35,247 nucleotides of DNA from IMG/VR virus record IMGVR_UViG_2703719355_000021; one strand, written 5' to 3'. Positions 25,617 to 34,191 of this stretch are shown here, piece after piece (position 1 is the first letter of the stretch; every line of letters begins with the position of its first letter). Source of the stretch: a virus (Duplodnaviria > Heunggongvirae > Uroviricota > Caudoviricetes). The notes under the pieces were generated by a model. That model was not told the origin of the DNA. It did no database searches and saw nothing but the letters and a program-made list of their open reading frames with translations. Both the position numbers and the translations under genes were made by a program.

Positions 25617-26576
25617 TTACTCCTTGTCCATTGCGTACAGCCCATTAACCAGAGCAAACTGTGGCACCCCGTCCGCGATGAAAGTCGCATTAACTCCGCA
25701 GGCTTCGCGGATAGCGGGTGCCACAATCTCCGCCCCGCCACCGACAACCATCACCCGCCCGTAACCCGAAAAACCCGCCAGTGCGCGGATTACGCGTTGT
25801 TTCAGTGTTTCTTCCTTTTCACGAATAACCGCCATCAGGCTGGCGTAATGCGCGTCATTGTGGATGTGCTGGCGCAGCCAGGCTTCATCATGGCGATGTT
25901 CGATAATGGTATTGGCGATGTGGTGACTGGTACGCATACCGTTAGTGGCCATCACCGACAGTACGGCATCGGCCATCAGGGAAACGCCTACGTGTGGATC
26001 GCAAAACACCTGGCTGATACCTGCCAGTTGTCCCTGAACCTTTGCCACATCCAGCGTGGTTCCGCCTAAATCCACAATCAGCAGGGATTCAAACGGACTC
26101 ATGTCAGCCAGTGCTTTAAAACCAGCCGGTATGGATTCAGGCATAACCCGTACGTTACGGATAGTGAATGCTTTTCCGTTCTGGTACGCCACCGGGCGCA
26201 TGACGTTTGCTTTTTTGCGGTTGATGTTGGCCATGTCCGGCTGTGCGTTTGTGTCGAAATACTCGCTCAGTGGCAGGGTGACAACCACATCCACCTCCTG
26301 TGGCGTGATGCCTGATTTGACCAGCGCGTGATGAATGGCAATGACATTCACATCGCTGTACTGGTATTGCGTGTCGGTCGTCTGGACAAAGCGATCGCTG
26401 ACCGGATCAAAACCATAGCGCACGCCATCAAGCATGTAGTTCGCGGGCTGCGTGCCACCGAACGGCGCAGACCATTCCGACTTGAAGCTGTTCGGGCTGA
26501 TGGCGTTGCGGCGTTCGCCGTTCTCAGTCCATGCCAGCTTGATGTTGGTGGAGCCGTCGTCGATACAAATTCTCAT
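25617..26576 (-). CDS. parM: ParM/StbA-family actin-like segregation ATPase
   Basis: MRICIDDGSTNIKLAW...ISPNSFKSEW...YQYSDVNVIAIHHAL...VDVVVTLPL closely parallels R1 ParM (MLVFIDDGSTNIKLQW...ISPNSFKREW...WQYSDVNVVAVHHAL...); AAGGAAAA ribosome-binding site. Confidence 0.9.
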   Translation of the reverse strand: MRICIDDGSTNIKLAWTENGERRNAISPNSFKSEWSAPFGGTQPANYMLDGVRYGFDPVSDRFVQTTDTQYQYSDVNVIAIHHALVKSGITPQEVDVVVTLPLSEYFDTNAQPDMANINRKKANVMRPVAYQNGKAFTIRNVRVMPESIPAGFKALADMSPFESLLIVDLGGTTLDVAKVQGQLAGISQVFCDPHVGVSLMADAVLSVMATNGMRTSHHIANTIIEHRHDEAWLRQHIHNDAHYASLMAVIREKEETLKQRVIRALAGFSGYGRVMVVGGGAEIVAPAIREACGVNATFIADGVPQFALVNGLYAMDKE

Positions 26577-26605: not shown

Positions 26606-26720
26606 CGTTTACGGGATTCTGAAATCCCGTTTTTGCCTGTTTTGTGCGCGCTTCACATATCGCTGCGCGTTTTTTGCTCATTTACGGGATTTGTGAATCC
26701 CGTTTCTGTCTGTTTTTTGT
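26606..26720. repeat. two ~40 bp direct repeats, each with a palindrome (acgggatt-N5-aatcccgt), upstream of parM: candidate parC centromere/operator
   Basis: cgtttacgggattctgaaatcccgtttttgcctgtttt (about 26606) and catttacgggatttgtgaatcccgtttctgtctgtttt (about 26679), 73 bp apart; the second lies within the last codons of gene A. Confidence 0.5.
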
Positions 26721-29475
26721 TTCCACTGGTCAGGCCACCCCGCAGCAGGTCTGCTTTGCGGCGGGCGCGTTCAGTGGTTTCACTGATTCTCTGTGCGTGC
26801 TCTGCGTCGCGGATGGCGCGCAGCATGTCAGAAAGCACGGTAACGGGTGTTTTCATGGTGTTCTGGTCCTGCTGAAGTGTGGATGCCAGGCGTGCGGCGG
26901 CTTCAGGGTCTGATGCCCCCAGCTGTGCCAGATAGCTGGCGACCGGGTTATGGCGGATCTCCGTGCTGCTTACGCCATGATTACGGCTCAGGCGCTGCCA
27001 GAGCTGCGTGATTCGGCTGTCCGGGCGGGTATCCGGTTTGCGTACAATTTCAAATCCCTGCGGTGCAATGATGCTGCCGTCAACGTACAGACTGCCGCCC
27101 CGTAACAGGTGCTGCATCTGTTGTTCACCGATATGCAGGCCGAGAGATTCAGCAGACTCTCGCCATTCTTTAGCGAGTAATTCGTGGTTATCAGGCAAAG
27201 GCCGCTGCTGTTTGCGGCTCTGTGTCCAGCTCTGCATTTCATCACTGCTGTTTTTTGCCTGTTTGTCACGAAGCGAACGCATCAGCGCCCGGCGTTCGTG
27301 CCGTTTCAGTGAGCGCATCCATTCGTTCACTTCAACGCCGTCAGGGAGCTGCGGCCACGGTGCTGGCCGTTCTTCCGGCTGTTCTGTCCCGTTGTTGTCC
27401 GTTTCCTGTACACGGGGACAGTTATTGCCACGAGTCCAAGGGGCGGCAGGGCCGCCCTGAAGGTCAAAACCATTTTCGCGGGCGCTGTCTTCCGCTTCCG
27501 GTTTGCGTCTTACCAGCTTCCAGTTATCCGGATGCGTGCACACACGGGAGGATTCCCCGATGAGTGGTGACCAGATCCCGTAAATCTGTACGCTCTGTTC
27601 GCCGTAATCGTTCAGCTCATCGGCGAGGTCGTAGGCGGTGCGAATCAGGTAGTCTTTGCGTGGAACAAGTACGCCGCCCTGTTTCTCTATGTAGGTGGCA
27701 AAACATCCGGCATCAGCGGCGGCAAGAACCGCATCCATTGCGTCATCCTTCAGCCGTTGCGGGCCTTCCGGGTTGCGTGCCATCTGGCTGGCAAGGCGGC
27801 GCAGTTCACGCCATACCTGGCGGGAGGGGATGCCAAAGAACTGGAACTGGCGGACCCGGTGAAGGCGCGCCCAGCCGATGGCGCGTTCCACGCTCTCGGC
27901 CATTGATTTTCCGGTTTCGTGGTCAACGCGTGGCTTGCCCGTTTTCGGGTCGATGCCATCCACGGCGCGGCTGTCCAGGTTTTTCCCGATGTAGGTGGCA
28001 ATGTAGCTGGTTGGCGTGCCTTTTGAGCCGTCTACATACTCCGCCTTAAAGCGCGGAGTTATGTCATCGCCCAGCTCGTGACGATCTTCCTGAATGGCAA
28101 TATCGCGGGTGTGGGACACAATGGTGTCGATTTCTTCCGGATGAGCAAAGACCATCATATGCCAGTGCACGGTGCCGTCATGGTGAGGCTCCACCGTGCG
28201 GATGCCATACCAGCGCAGGCCGTCGCGGTTCAGTTTCTTGCGGACCGCCGCAAAAAACGTGTTAACCAGGTAATCGCTGGAGTCGCGCATGGTGGCCCCG
28301 TTCCATTTGGGGTTCGGATGACCGTTCTCCGTTGTTGCGTGGTATTTTGACGGGCAGGTGACGGTCAGAAACACCGCTCTGTCGCCACGGGCTTCGGCCA
28401 GAAGTTCCAGTCCCTTCATGGTGGCCATCATTTCTGCTTTACGGTGAACCGGGTTACTTACTCCCGCGTAATACACCGTCTCGAGATCAATCGTGAACCC
28501 GTCTTCATTTTCCAGCATGAAACTTTTCAGGAAATCGCGTGTTTTCTCGCGCTGTGCGCGAAACTCGCTTAACGCGTCCTGGCTCAGATAGGGTGATGTT
28601 TTTCTGGAAACCAGACAGGCGGCGCGGAGTTGTTCTTCTCTCCACTCGCAACGTAACAGCCACAGTTTGCGTTTCCACCATTCCGCACAGGTCAGGCGAA
28701 GGATTGCGCCCGGCAGCAGCTCCGTGTCCGGTTCGTTCCTCCGGTCTTTATCTGTTGTCAGTGCGTCATAATGTGGAGGCATGATGTGCAGGTGTAACGC
28801 CATGCGGGCCAGCATCTGATACGCCTTCAGCGTTACATCCATGGTCAGTTCGCCATCGGTCGCGCCAAAGCCATCGCAGAGTTTTTCGAAGGTGCTGCTG
28901 AACATCGCCGCCGTCATGGTGGCCAGCGTCTGTATCTGGTGTTTGTTGAGCTGCGGCAGGTAAAGCAAATCGTCCAGGCGTTCGCGTCCGGCAAGGGAGC
29001 GATAACCCGGTGTCAGCCAGTGTCCGTCAGTGCGATCCAGACGTTCGAATATTTTGCGCAGGGTTCCGCGTGCATAGCGTTCCGCCTGCCAGCTCTTTTT
29101 GCCTTTCCGGCGATCGGCTTCCTGTTTTTTGCGCAGGAAGGAGAGGTGGCGAATAAGCGGATCGCGCAGATAGGACGGCAGCAGGCGCAGCGAGGCCATG
29201 GCTTCATCCACCGCGCCGCGTGCCTGTTTTCTGGCGTCTCCTGCCAGTGTGATGGTTTTGTCCTGTTTTTCCTGTGCGTCCAGGCTTTTATTAATCAGGT
29301 TGCCCAGCGGCGTGGCGGAGAACGCCGCATCAGCCATTTCCTTGCGGCGCTCGTTCTCTGCCCGGTAGGCATCCAGCCAGGAGGAAAGCGCGGATTCAGG
29401 AGCGGGGATCCCCGTTCCTTCACGCCCCACTGCGTGGCGCGGTTGTTGCCAGTCCCTGATGTACTCTGCCGTCAT
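26653..29475 (-). CDS. A: replication initiation protein gpA (rolling-circle endonuclease family) with extended C-terminal region
   Basis: 940 aa; HHDGTVHWHMMVF-type HUH-like motif and P2/186 A-like central region; last gene of the early operon; about 180 aa longer than P2 A. Confidence 0.88.
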   Translation of the reverse strand: MTAEYIRDWQQPRHAVGREGTGIPAPESALSSWLDAYRAENERRKEMADAAFSATPLGNLINKSLDAQEKQDKTITLAGDARKQARGAVDEAMASLRLLPSYLRDPLIRHLSFLRKKQEADRRKGKKSWQAERYARGTLRKIFERLDRTDGHWLTPGYRSLAGRERLDDLLYLPQLNKHQIQTLATMTAAMFSSTFEKLCDGFGATDGELTMDVTLKAYQMLARMALHLHIMPPHYDALTTDKDRRNEPDTELLPGAILRLTCAEWWKRKLWLLRCEWREEQLRAACLVSRKTSPYLSQDALSEFRAQREKTRDFLKSFMLENEDGFTIDLETVYYAGVSNPVHRKAEMMATMKGLELLAEARGDRAVFLTVTCPSKYHATTENGHPNPKWNGATMRDSSDYLVNTFFAAVRKKLNRDGLRWYGIRTVEPHHDGTVHWHMMVFAHPEEIDTIVSHTRDIAIQEDRHELGDDITPRFKAEYVDGSKGTPTSYIATYIGKNLDSRAVDGIDPKTGKPRVDHETGKSMAESVERAIGWARLHRVRQFQFFGIPSRQVWRELRRLASQMARNPEGPQRLKDDAMDAVLAAADAGCFATYIEKQGGVLVPRKDYLIRTAYDLADELNDYGEQSVQIYGIWSPLIGESSRVCTHPDNWKLVRRKPEAEDSARENGFDLQGGPAAPWTRGNNCPRVQETDNNGTEQPEERPAPWPQLPDGVEVNEWMRSLKRHERRALMRSLRDKQAKNSSDEMQSWTQSRKQQRPLPDNHELLAKEWRESAESLGLHIGEQQMQHLLRGGSLYVDGSIIAPQGFEIVRKPDTRPDSRITQLWQRLSRNHGVSSTEIRHNPVASYLAQLGASDPEAAARLASTLQQDQNTMKTPVTVLSDMLRAIRDAEHAQRISETTERARRKADLLRGGLTSGNKKQTETGFTNPVNEQKTRSDM

Positions 29476-29481
29476 AGTGAT

Positions 29482-29847
29482 TTACTTCGTCATGCCATTC
29501 AGGGTGTCGCGGCAGACGGTAGCCAGCCGCTGAATTTCCAGCACGGTGTCTTCTGTGTCGGCATAGTGATGTGTGATGCGGATGCTGTCGGCAATCACAT
29601 CGACGATCGCAGAGGATGGGCGCTGGTAAATGCCAATAACGGACGGGGTGCCACCTTCAATACGGTAAAGCCTGTAATTTCCCTCGTGGCTGTCAATCAT
29701 GTAACGACCATCAATAACAATCTTTCCGTCAGCGAGCTGCGGTACAGGCAGGGATTTCAGGTACATGTCATAACGTTCACGCACGCGAACGGCAAGATCA
29801 CGCTCTGTGTTGAGCAGGTATTCAAGAAAGTCGTTGGCGAGAATCAT
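29482..29847 (-). CDS. hypothetical early-operon protein (121 aa)
   Basis: Track ORF immediately upstream of A on the same strand; no family recognised. Confidence 0.55.
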   Translation of the reverse strand: MILANDFLEYLLNTERDLAVRVRERYDMYLKSLPVPQLADGKIVIDGRYMIDSHEGNYRLYRIEGGTPSVIGIYQRPSSAIVDVIADSIRITHHYADTEDTVLEIQRLATVCRDTLNGMTK

Positions 29848-29919
29848 TGCGGCAATCCTCTTGTTACAGATGTGCGAAGGCCTCCCGCCGCAAGGTGCAG
29901 GAAAGGCCCGGAACAGGAA

Positions 29920-30150
29920 TTAATGGAGTTTGTTTTGCTGCTGGATGAGCTGCTGAAGCTCGCGCAGATCATCCGCCAGATAGCTGAAAACAGAGGCGGA
30001 ATAAATGTTTGATAGTGCGTGGCTGCGCTCATGCAGCATATTGATGTGCATGATTTGCGCGACGCGTGATGCGCGGGAAAGTCTGCGGTTGATTTCAGTC
30101 TGGATGTGACGACGCTCCGCGATAGCGCGGTGTGGTTTGCGGTTTGCCAT
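29920..30150 (-). CDS. hypothetical small basic protein (76 aa)
   Basis: AAGGGG ribosome-binding site; preceded by a structured 320 bp leader; Arg-rich N-terminus. Confidence 0.55.
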   Translation of the reverse strand: MANRKPHRAIAERRHIQTEINRRLSRASRVAQIMHINMLHERSHALSNIYSASVFSYLADDLRELQQLIQQQNKLH

Positions 30151-30329
30151 GGTGTGGCCCCTTGTGTAGTAAGTTGTGAAAACTCACCATCCAGAGCTGC
30201 GAAACTGTGGGTGGCGAGACGTACGAGGTTCGCAGTACCGGCTACACAAGAACCCGGCCCGACCGAAGTCGGCCCCGTACGCCCCGCCATAATTCTGACG
30301 CGAAAAAAACGTGGCAATACAGTACGCAC

Positions 30330-30350
30330 AAAAAAACCGCTGGCGCGGTT
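30330..30350 (-). terminator. intrinsic terminator inside the early operon (minus-strand sense)
   Basis: Minus-sense aACCGCgccaGCGGT followed by seven T; flanked by complementary cgcaca / tgtgcg. Confidence 0.55.
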
Positions 30351-30470
30351 GTGCGCTTGTGTAGTCAGCAGGCTGCGAAACCCGGCACCCGTTTTGTGAG
30401 GTGCAGCGGAAATGTAACCTGACTGATTGCGGCATGGCAAGCGGTTTTTTTGTGTGTGCATTATGATCAC

Positions 30471-31031
30471 TCAGTTTGGTAATAGCTCGTACAGTGCGGC
30501 GTCAGCAGCGACTCGGCGACCGTAAAGAGAACGTGCTGTGCGAGTGGTGATTTTTATTTGCAGTGTGTGATTAATGTGTTTTGCTATCATGGCGAACGTC
30601 ATGTGCTGCTCATCATGTAGTTCAGTCACCAGTTCTACCAGGTGATCGCTGTATTTGGTCAGGTGATGGAGTTCCCCGCATTTTTGTAGGCTGTAACCAC
30701 GTTTATTCAGGTGTGCTTGTACGGTGCGAGGGGTGCATCCCGCCTCGGCGGCCAGTTCCCGCGCTGTTCTGGTGCGGCGGTTTTCGATGAGAAAGGCGAT
30801 CTCTTTTGCACTCAGTGTCTTTTTCTTGCGGCCAATCAATCCACGATCACGTAAAAAACTAAGTCGGCGCATAACTGCGTCATGGGTTCGTTGAATTCGT
30901 TCAGTTATCTGGTGCGTGTTGCACTCCGGATAAAGCGAGATAAGCATTTCATCTTCCTGTTGTGTCCATGGCTTTACATGTGCCGGAGCCACGCCAGGTG
31001 TACCCATTGGTTTGAGTTTGAAGTTGTGCAT
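30471..31031 (-). CDS. hypothetical DNA-binding protein (186 aa)
   Basis: Track ORF; WTQQEDEMLISLY Myb/SANT-like segment and a predicted HTH (SAKEIAFLIENRRTRTARELAAEAG); function unassigned. Confidence 0.55.
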   Translation of the reverse strand: MHNFKLKPMGTPGVAPAHVKPWTQQEDEMLISLYPECNTHQITERIQRTHDAVMRRLSFLRDRGLIGRKKKTLSAKEIAFLIENRRTRTARELAAEAGCTPRTVQAHLNKRGYSLQKCGELHHLTKYSDHLVELVTELHDEQHMTFAMIAKHINHTLQIKITTRTARSLYGRRVAADAALYELLPN

Positions 31032-33793: not shown

Positions 33794-33888
33794 GTGATAA
33801 TCTCCCTGTTTGGGGTATTTCTTGCGACGGATGCCCCAAATCAAACTCATTTGTATAAACATTAATACAGACGTTGGAGAATTGCAAC

Positions 33889-34191
33889 ATGCGTATGACT
33901 ATTGGAGAGCGCATAAAAATCATGCGTGAAAGCGAGAGACTTACTAGCCTCCCGGATACAGCAAAAATGCTTGGTTTAAACCGTGATGCTCTGTGGAGAT
34001 ATGAAAGCGGTAAAACTATCCCTAATGCTGAAGTAATTGAGCAAATACTAAACAACCCCAGATTTGAGAAATATGCGTTGTGGTTTATGACTGGGAAAAT
34101 TGCGCCTGAATCCGGGCAGATAGCTCCGGCTCTCGCACACTATGGGCAAGAGCCAACGGACTTACCCCCATCCGAAAGGAAAATTGGCTAA
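33889..34191 (+). CDS. C: P2-type immunity repressor C
   Basis: TIGERIKIMRESERL...YESGKTIP...FEKYALWFMTGKIAPESGQIAPALAHYGQ aligns with P2 C (TISEKIVLMRKSEYL...YESGRSTP...FTKYTLWFMTNQIAPESGQIAPALAHFGQ); start at the ATG with a GGAGA ribosome-binding site. Confidence 0.88.
   Translation: MRMTIGERIKIMRESERLTSLPDTAKMLGLNRDALWRYESGKTIPNAEVIEQILNNPRFEKYALWFMTGKIAPESGQIAPALAHYGQEPTDLPPSERKIG

Follow-up and report, generated by a model that had tools for sequence, protein, structure and literature searches.

The DNA considered here is IMG/VR virus record IMGVR_UViG_2703719355_000021, and the whole stretch of 35,247 nucleotides (nt), referred to below as the window, is a P88-like prophage of Escherichia coli (genus Xuanwuvirus, family Peduoviridae, P2-like). 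The genes for the C repressor and the integrase lie on one strand, while the other strand carries, in this order, Cox, accessory genes, a gene for a DNA-binding protein of 186 amino acids (aa), the segment under study, a 76-aa gene, a 121-aa gene, the replication gene A and a ParM gene. The segment is a 320-nt gap which, in the minus-strand sense, separates the stop codon of the 186-aa gene (30473..30471) from the ATG of the 76-aa gene (30150). A previous sequence-only reading saw in it structured RNA that would regulate the 76-aa, 121-aa and A genes through base-pairing repeats, and proposed either an attenuator or riboregulator or an independent small RNA. Our analysis supports both the regulatory assignment and the pairing, and in fact two small RNAs are present; the device is not novel, however, as the region is the known IsrK-C4 module (seqA-CI in satellite phage P4, c4 in phage P1). 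We conclude that the region is very probably a P1/P4-type RNA immunity cassette located in the early operon of this P2-family prophage.

The IsrK and C4 RNAs in the gap

Scanning the whole window against Rfam returned exactly two matches above the curated thresholds, and both lie in the gap, on the minus strand and at full length. The isrK model (RF01394) matches 30404..30330 over model positions 1-77 of 77 with 64.1 bits against a gathering score of 50, and the C4 antisense RNA model (RF01695) matches 30294..30207 over positions 1-87 of 87 with 83.2 bits against 45. The c4-a1b1 motif (RF03163) remains below its threshold at 30417..30365 (20.9 bits, gathering score 46.7), and the isrK model overlapping it is the better fit; on this motif, P4 reaches 44.1 bits. 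A search of the gap for tRNA and tmRNA genes found none. IsrK and C4 correspond to the seqA and CI RNAs of P4, and comparable systems are known from P1, P7, N15 and lambdoid prophages (PMC3632133); the two RNAs have been reported to be highly expressed in lysogens (bioRxiv 10.1101/787010).

The 320-nt module was found in 1153 of 5426 complete E. coli genomes, where RefSeq shows under it either no feature or an 'ash family protein', and no RNA gene. Rfam matched both isrK and C4 in P88, in a Salmonella relative and in a third relative (L007), and neither in the early regions of P2 and 186. Our literature search turned up nothing on C4 or IsrK for P88-like or other P2-like phages. The L007 record (NZ_JBQPOM010000071.1, 87865-91092) is titled Vagococcus sp., but it is a P88-like enterobacterial segment with isrK, C4 and a 76-aa protein at 89% identity, and the record is probably a contamination or a mislabelled assembly.

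The intrinsic terminator listed by the sequence-only reading is present, with ACCGC at 30349..30345, GCGGT at 30340..30336 and seven U running to 30330 on the minus strand, and it was also recovered by a terminator scan (a 6-base-pair (bp) stem followed by U7). It ends a separate small RNA, IsrK, which has a promoter-like site of its own that had gone unlisted. This site ends 7 nt before the start of the isrK model at 30404, and its −10 hexamer is kept in 12/12 relatives and its −35 hexamer in 11/12 (one has TTGCCC), while the spacer varies. From these features, we infer that IsrK transcription starts near 30404 from a promoter at this site. In Gifsy-1, IsrK binds Hfq, and some of its transcripts read through the terminator (PMC4825925).

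A different promoter, TTGCCA-17-AATTAT at 30317..30289, had been proposed downstream of this terminator. The sequence is there, with 9/12 consensus matches in our scan, but its function is doubtful. As a source of C4 it was rejected as unlikely: the −35 hexamer reads TCGCCA in 9/12 relatives, and AAUUAU makes up the first six positions (1-6) of the C4 model, immediately 5' of its basal stem. Because the −10 hexamer is the conserved 5' leader of C4, a start directed by it would truncate the C4 basal stem, and the site is probably non-functional. Also rejected were a second terminator at the U-run 30309..30303 (negative in the scan, and interrupted in relatives), a plus-strand terminator at 30437..30457 (by eye, a T-run preceded by a 4-bp stem only) and a LexA box at TACTGTAT (30323..; by eye, a half-site only).

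C4 folds into a basal stem enclosing two hairpins, the first of which is the UUCG hairpin that had been noticed before (stem 30272..30268 with 30263..30259, minus strand). The middle copy of the repeat, previously taken for a hairpin switch, is found instead in the loops of this conserved three-helix RNA, where it forms the elements b' and a'. To compare the fold, C4-like loci were collected from viral contigs with a pattern in which just the UUCG loop and the second hairpin stem are fixed, and were kept if they showed the three-helix fold; together with the fetched relatives and the window, they make up 71 non-redundant loci. The diversity of the set comes from this DNA pattern scan, as a search with the 76-aa protein, at one genome per species, gave only 3 loci. 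In 37 diverse sequences including P1 c4 and P4 CI, 96.4% of the cells are paired, compared with 36-45% in controls in which the partners were slid by 1-3 columns, and 18/27 pairs carry changes on both sides. Alignment to the annotated P1 c4 misc_RNA (77 nt) predicts a mature C4 of 78 nt at 30288..30211. The sequence shows a conserved leader before the C4 stem and homology to the mature ends in P1; by analogy C4 would be excised from a longer transcript and act in trans as an immunity factor.

Complementarity between C4 and its targets

The bipartite repeat is present in three copies on the minus strand, all elements lying within a few bases of where the sequence-only reading had put them. In the transcript sense, UUUCGCAG and CUACACAAG occur in IsrK (a1 and b1) and again downstream of C4 (a2 and b2), and a' and b' of C4 are their exact 7-nt and 9-nt complements at the upstream and downstream sites alike (Table 1). 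The 9-mer has three copies in the 35-kb window, all of them in the gap, against 0.10 expected, and 0/100 shuffles reach three; the 8-mer alone is not significant (4 copies in the window against 1.75 expected). As had been noted, the downstream copy covers the AAGGGG ribosome-binding site of the 76-aa gene, and 11 nt separate b2 from the ATG. The b'/b2 duplex has a predicted energy of −17.7 kcal/mol, with nine Watson-Crick and two G-U pairs extending into the Shine-Dalgarno sequence, and the a'/a2 duplex one of −10.5 kcal/mol.

The sequence-only reading had named lack of conservation of the repeat pairing in related phages as a refuting outcome, and covariation across the C4 loci favours function. 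The 71 loci hold 41 b' loops and 24 a' elements in 46 combinations. We asked whether a perfect complement of at least 7 nt is present at each of the four target positions, using either the loops of the same locus or those of other loci. Own loops match a1 in 97%, b1 in 72%, a2 in 92% and b2 in 89% of the loci, whereas the loops of other loci match in 1-3% at every position. The target positions are themselves conserved, with a2 lying ~8-11 nt and b2 ~38-43 nt after C4. Among the P88-like relatives, variable columns number 31 of 50 in the six a/b elements and 68 of 255 outside them. Over E. coli, Salmonella and Citrobacter phages, the backbone hardly varies, while the six elements change together and stay complementary, giving at least 10 specificities in this group. 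In P88, for example, the C4 loops are CUGUAGUUG and GUGGAAA. Such matched variation is what an immunity determinant acting through RNA-RNA pairing should show.

In other C4 loci, the modules precede Rha, Bro-N and P22-type antirepressor genes. C4 was also seen directly upstream of genes that are not antirepressors, coding for a Tad2-like (Thoeris anti-defence) protein and for a 946-aa helicase with an apparent intein-like insert; in the viral contigs L021 and L008, C4 lies near 1902 and 2099, ahead of first open reading frames (ORFs) of 85 and 946 aa, respectively. Genes for DUF6124 and DUF3077 proteins likewise stand directly downstream of C4 modules in viral contigs. We also observed that the a' element of P88-type C4 (L001 and L002), GUGGAAA, is exactly complementary to UUUCCAC, the a' element of Rha-type and some P4-like C4 RNAs (L012, L085 and L102); ~0.02 such exact pairs are expected by chance among the 24 distinct a' elements. 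Two C4 RNAs of co-resident elements could therefore pair with each other.

The first gene after the cassette codes for a homologue of P4 epsilon, with 29% identity in BLASTP (E = 4e-9), and P4 epsilon itself scores 170 bits on the Derepression family (PF25738) that the 76-aa protein matches. Its variable columns are distributed over the codon positions as 24/24/52 of 76, which is a coding pattern. The 5' part of this gene is C-rich and G-poor, with C/G ratios of 1.75-1.94 at 30142..30040 that exceed the 95th percentile of the window (1.72). The 121-aa protein shows no similarity to orf151 of P4 and has no counterpart there. Gene A, annotated as 'replication endonuclease' in relatives, is expected to be the last gene that depends on read-through of the cassette. 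In the record of phage 186 (L130, 5744-6857), translation of A requires translation to the end of orf84, and the terminator tM1 acts when A is untranslated; such coupling of read-through to translation, immediately before gene A, may be common to P2-like phages in general. Gene A is directly followed by a ParM-type plasmid segregation gene (25617-26576, minus strand) and the next small ORF downstream, and in relatives by a partition/stability gene. The prophage with the ParM-type gene is integrated chromosomally in nearly all E. coli genomes (1281 chromosomal places versus 2 on plasmids).

Table 1. Features of the cassette and of the genes that follow it, with positions in the window.
Feature	Position	Strand	Details
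15-nt element	30443..30457	-	CACAAAAAAACCGCU; upstream of IsrK start and promoter-like site
IsrK promoter-like site	30411..30440	-	TTGCCA, 18 nt, TACATT; 9/12 matches in scan
IsrK small RNA (P4 seqA)	30330..30404	-	Rfam RF01394; two 5' hairpins, intrinsic terminator 30350..30330
a1 site	30380..30373	-	UUUCGCAG; in IsrK hairpin loop
b1 site	30364..30356	-	CUACACAAG; in IsrK
C4 antisense RNA (P4 CI RNA)	30207..30294	-	Rfam RF01695; basal stem enclosing two hairpins
C4 UUCG hairpin (first internal)	30272..30259	-	Rfam fold
C4 second hairpin	30258..30237	-	12-nt loop carries b'
b'	30250..30242	-	CUUGUGUAG; in loop of second hairpin
a'	30235..30229	-	CUGCGAA; single strand between second hairpin and basal stem
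a2 target	30197..30204	-	UUUCGCAG; 7 nt past predicted C4 3' end
b2 target and Shine-Dalgarno	30158..30169	-	CUACACAAG 30169..30161 overlaps AAGGGG 30163..30158
208-codon ORF	29844..30470	-	spans whole cassette and, in another frame, the 76-aa gene; PGAP/RefSeq 'ash family protein' in relatives
76-aa gene	29920..30150	-	P4 epsilon homologue, first gene under the proposed control; Pfam PF25738 'Derepression', 32.2 bits vs cut-off 27
121-aa gene	29482..29847	-	same operon; phrog_3237, function unknown
Gene A	26653..29475	-	rolling-circle replication endonuclease; Pfam Phage_GPA, E = 1.4e-131

Proposed mechanism and competing explanations

In the mechanism that we propose, transcription from the IsrK promoter-like site would start near 30404, and most transcripts would end at the IsrK terminator to give an RNA of ~75 nt carrying a1 and b1. 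C4 would be supplied by the transcripts that read through and by those coming from the upstream early promoter, and would be cut to ~78 nt (30288..30211) as in P1 and P4, whose RNAs of this kind receive their 5' end from RNase P. The three-helix fold would then display b' in a hairpin loop and a' in a junction strand, which would pair in trans with a2 and b2 ahead of the epsilon-like gene, in its leader. As the Shine-Dalgarno sequence partly lies within b2, this pairing would block translation of the gene, and its untranslated C-rich start would permit premature, probably Rho-dependent, termination; the C-rich, G-poor composition is that expected of a Rho loading site, and the untranslated leader should therefore terminate before the 121-aa and A genes. 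In the lysogen, the 121-aa gene and the replication gene would thus not be expressed from the internal promoter. The a1 and b1 sites would provide a second binding site for C4, in cis on read-through RNA and in trans on free IsrK. As IsrK would in this way compete for C4, the IsrK:C4 ratio may tune the block, as shown for Gifsy-1. While the identity of both RNAs, the fold, the covarying complementarity, the overlap of b2 with the ribosome-binding site and the homology to epsilon are observed directly, the processing, the trans action, the polarity on A and the biological role, be it immunity or an induction gate, are drawn from the better-known relatives.

The same repeats could instead form a leader or attenuator that works purely in cis, in which the middle copy switches between its upstream and downstream partners and no RNA acts in trans. 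The first half of this switch is seen in folding, as the minimum-energy structure of the read-through RNA 30404..30140 pairs a1/b1 with a'/b', and the work on Gifsy-1 demonstrated both an inactive cis structure ('structure A') and a switch (PMC4825925). The second half, which would bury the ribosome-binding site in a hairpin, does not appear: with the downstream copy, nested folding keeps C4 intact and forms no cis hairpin with a2/b2, which fits a pairing of loop to strand rather than an alternative hairpin. The alternative pairing of the sequence-only reading is thus retained for the upstream copy and not for the downstream one. Covariation backs the three-helix C4 fold and not the long-range alternative, the homologous P1 and P4 RNAs are processed and act in trans (P1 annotation; PMC3632133; PMC10111431), and many interchangeable specificities on near-identical backbones are what is expected of a trans-acting immunity determinant. 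We consider a purely cis-acting device unlikely. The two modes are not exclusive, and our doubt concerns cis action as the sole mode.

Another explanation is that the region is conserved for a protein, with the RNA matches being incidental. The sequence-only reading held that no credible ORF covers the gap; a 208-codon ORF does span it and is annotated in relatives, but it lacks a coding signature. The case for it is that the ORF begins immediately behind the 186-aa gene's stop codon, shares an ATGA at its end with the 121-aa gene, is open in 12/12 P88-like relatives with frame-preserving indels, matches the Pfam family Phage_ASH (PF10554) and is annotated by PGAP as an 'ash family protein' in RefSeq genomes. 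The Pfam match is marginal, however (26.5 bits against a cut-off of 26), and is limited to residues 19-112, that is 30416..30135, a stretch that covers IsrK, C4 and a2/b2. The same family matches the historical 'cI protein' ORF of P4 with 59.7 bits over the CI RNA, although the P4 immunity factor is an RNA (PMC3632133; PMC10111431). Outside the a/b sites, the frame has no codon periodicity in the 12 relatives (variable columns 23/85, 22/85 and 23/85), whereas the overlapping 76-aa gene shows it in its own frame. There is no evidence, either, of selection on the portion of the frame lying over the 76-aa gene, as 16-80% of synonymous shuffles keep this frame open. In addition, one relative reads C4 in a different frame between two compensating indels, and the frame is closed in more distant C4 loci. 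Because of the missing periodicity, the open shuffles, the frame switch and the closed distant frames, the conservation is explained by the RNAs and not by a protein, and the coding explanation seems to us very improbable. Judging from where its matches fall, Phage_ASH itself appears to have been built on translations of the IsrK/C4 (P4 seqA/CI) RNA region. This observation concerns the window at 29844-30470 (minus strand), L128 (8168-8584) and P88 (L002, 5033-5221); the P88 RefSeq record also lists an antisense 'hypothetical protein' (gp13) over the IsrK and C4 RNAs.

It is possible, by analogy, that the 208-codon frame is translated for regulation without giving a functional protein. In P4, eta is translated from the upstream promoter, and its translation suppresses immunity-dependent termination (PMC10111431). 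In Gifsy-1, orf45 is a short frame in the equivalent position that is translated, and its nucleotides but not its amino acids are conserved (PMC4825925).

One might also regard the cassette as an inactive remnant, acquired by recombination with a lambdoid phage or P4-like element. The RNA part is nearest to lambdoid modules (67-74% identity) while the downstream gene is P4-like, which indicates a mosaic origin. However, the six specificity elements co-change and stay complementary on a near-invariant backbone, the promoter hexamers are conserved over a variable spacer, and the module is widespread among complete E. coli genomes, so that decay of this kind is hardly conceivable.

Several points weigh against the immunity cassette as we have drawn it. 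For this prophage, the promoter, the termination, the processing and the trans action rest on homology. The b1 match is weaker than those at the other sites, and the a' duplex is short (7 bp), with shuffled loops occasionally reaching similar energies. The 71-locus set was pre-selected, by the pattern for helix 3 and the UUCG loop and then by the fold filter, which inflates the paired percentage but leaves the compensatory changes and the target covariation unaffected. If the 208-codon frame is translated on early-promoter transcripts, as eta is in P4, these transcripts may escape C4. Finally, the epsilon-like proteins are 95-99% identical in three phages whose immunity repressors C share only 35-42%: the repressor in the window (33874-34191, plus strand) has 42% identity to that of P88 (L002, 1170-1451) and 35% to that of P88_4B11 (L003, 1972-2274). 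No co-variation between the epsilon-like protein and the C repressor was seen in these three phages; this gives no support to the view that the protein is an antirepressor acting on the repressor of its own phage, and the repressor type and the specificity of the RNA cassette assort independently.

Upstream of the IsrK promoter-like site, we noticed a 15-nt element, CACAAAAAAACCGCU, that is a perfect complement of the 3' strand of the IsrK terminator together with its U-tract (30340..30326), so that the two arms bracket the IsrK gene. The element is present in 13/13 P88-like loci and in 0/44 other C4 loci, and it also occurs in Citrobacter phage Shae_phiSM. In an RNA started upstream, the predicted long-range helix reaches −55.5 kcal/mol, compared with −45.8 kcal/mol when the terminator is enforced, and is thus ~9.7 kcal/mol more stable. 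Both arms are invariant, and covariation therefore cannot decide on this helix. The element could allow early-operon transcripts to bypass the terminator, could form an RNase III site, or could be an upstream element of the promoter. A bolder proposal, which we put forward as speculative and rather doubtful as a whole, takes the P4-style cassette of these helper-type phages for more than a borrowed copy and joins two ideas: that the helix is a switch set by the promoter of origin, and that the hypervariable a/b elements together with the conserved epsilon-like protein, which does not follow the repressor type of its phage, reflect RNA cross-talk of helper phages with P4-like satellites or other prophages of the same cell. 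If so, early-promoter transcripts would pass the IsrK terminator or be cleaved at it by RNase III, those from the internal promoter would terminate, and the switch would complement or replace the eta-translation trick of P4. The cross-talk could consist, for instance, in decoying or silencing the CI RNA of a satellite, or in derepressing a neighbouring prophage.

Comparison with related modules

By architecture, the closest system is satellite phage P4. Its layout runs from the promoter PLE through seqA, the CI RNA, seqC, kil/eta, epsilon and two ORFs to the replication gene alpha, and its mechanism, including the parts played by eta and kil, has been described (PMC10111431). Rfam assigns P4 seqA to isrK (60.8 bits) and the CI RNA to C4 (74.9 bits), in the same order as here; in both phages, the RNAs precede a gene of the epsilon family, the operon closes with a replication gene, and a long ORF over the RNAs matches Phage_ASH. 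The internal promoter of P4 lies inside this long ORF (PMC10111431), as does the predicted one in the window. There are also clear differences. The epsilon-like gene directly follows b2 in the window, whereas in P4 this place belongs to the small gene kil, which has its ribosome-binding site in seqC and is nested in the longer translated ORF eta; no separate small first gene resembling kil was found here, and the eta-like 208-codon frame is in a different frame from the 76-aa gene. The replication gene codes for a gpA-type nicking endonuclease instead of the alpha primase-helicase, and the carrier is a complete P2-like phage of the helper type while P4 is a satellite. From the IsrK terminator to C4 there are 35 nt here and ~107 nt in P4, blastn detects no DNA-level similarity between the two, and the P4-like loci are without the 15-nt complement of the terminator.

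The immI region of P1 and P7 (c4, icd, ant) has the same order of elements, with promoters (two in P1), a1, b1, C4, a2, b2 and the first gene. In P1, as here, b2 lies over the ribosome-binding site with 11 nt between b2 and the ATG (of icd), and the RNA has the same fold (P1 c4 is part of the covariation alignment). The antisense RNA of P1 controls a gene for the relief of repression, as is proposed here. Unlike in the window, no IsrK-type terminator is annotated between b1 and c4 in P1, and its downstream genes icd and ant bear no relation to the 76-aa gene, the 121-aa gene and A. A feature of P1 is that the promoter is controlled by a C1 operator.

The nearest relatives at the nucleotide level are the isrK-orf45 (STnc1160)-anrP module of Gifsy-1 and the lambdoid modules of mEp460, ST64B and Stx phages, with 67-74% identity over 30404..30210. 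In Gifsy-1, IsrK is made from a promoter of its own and ends at a leaky terminator, behind which comes a processed RNA of ~80 nt (STnc1160) that is complementary to IsrK (PMC4825925), and a reading frame runs through the C4 region in Gifsy-1 and the lambdoid modules as it does here. In contrast to the window, what follows in these modules is a gene for Rha or an antirepressor that shares its frame with the ORF over C4, and not an epsilon-like gene followed by a replication gene. The published model for Gifsy-1 also differs in that IsrK activates translation in trans, and a repressing role of the C4-like RNA is not established there.

The cassette is thus an unannotated or mis-annotated member of the IsrK-C4 (P1 c4/P4 CI) family in a new host lineage, placed before a P2-type replication gene. 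What seemed to be an unexplained gap is resolved as a known regulatory device, which corrects the database annotation of a segment that is blank or labelled 'ash family protein' in about one-fifth of complete E. coli genomes. The at least 10 interchangeable specificities on a near-invariant backbone offer a natural set for studying how two short RNA contacts define immunity specificity. Moreover, an RNA immunity module and an epsilon-type gene, a combination known from P4, co-occur in a helper-type P2-like lineage before the replication gene, and this bears on the origin of the immunity and derepression functions of P4 and on how non-SOS P2-like prophages might gate their replication and induction.

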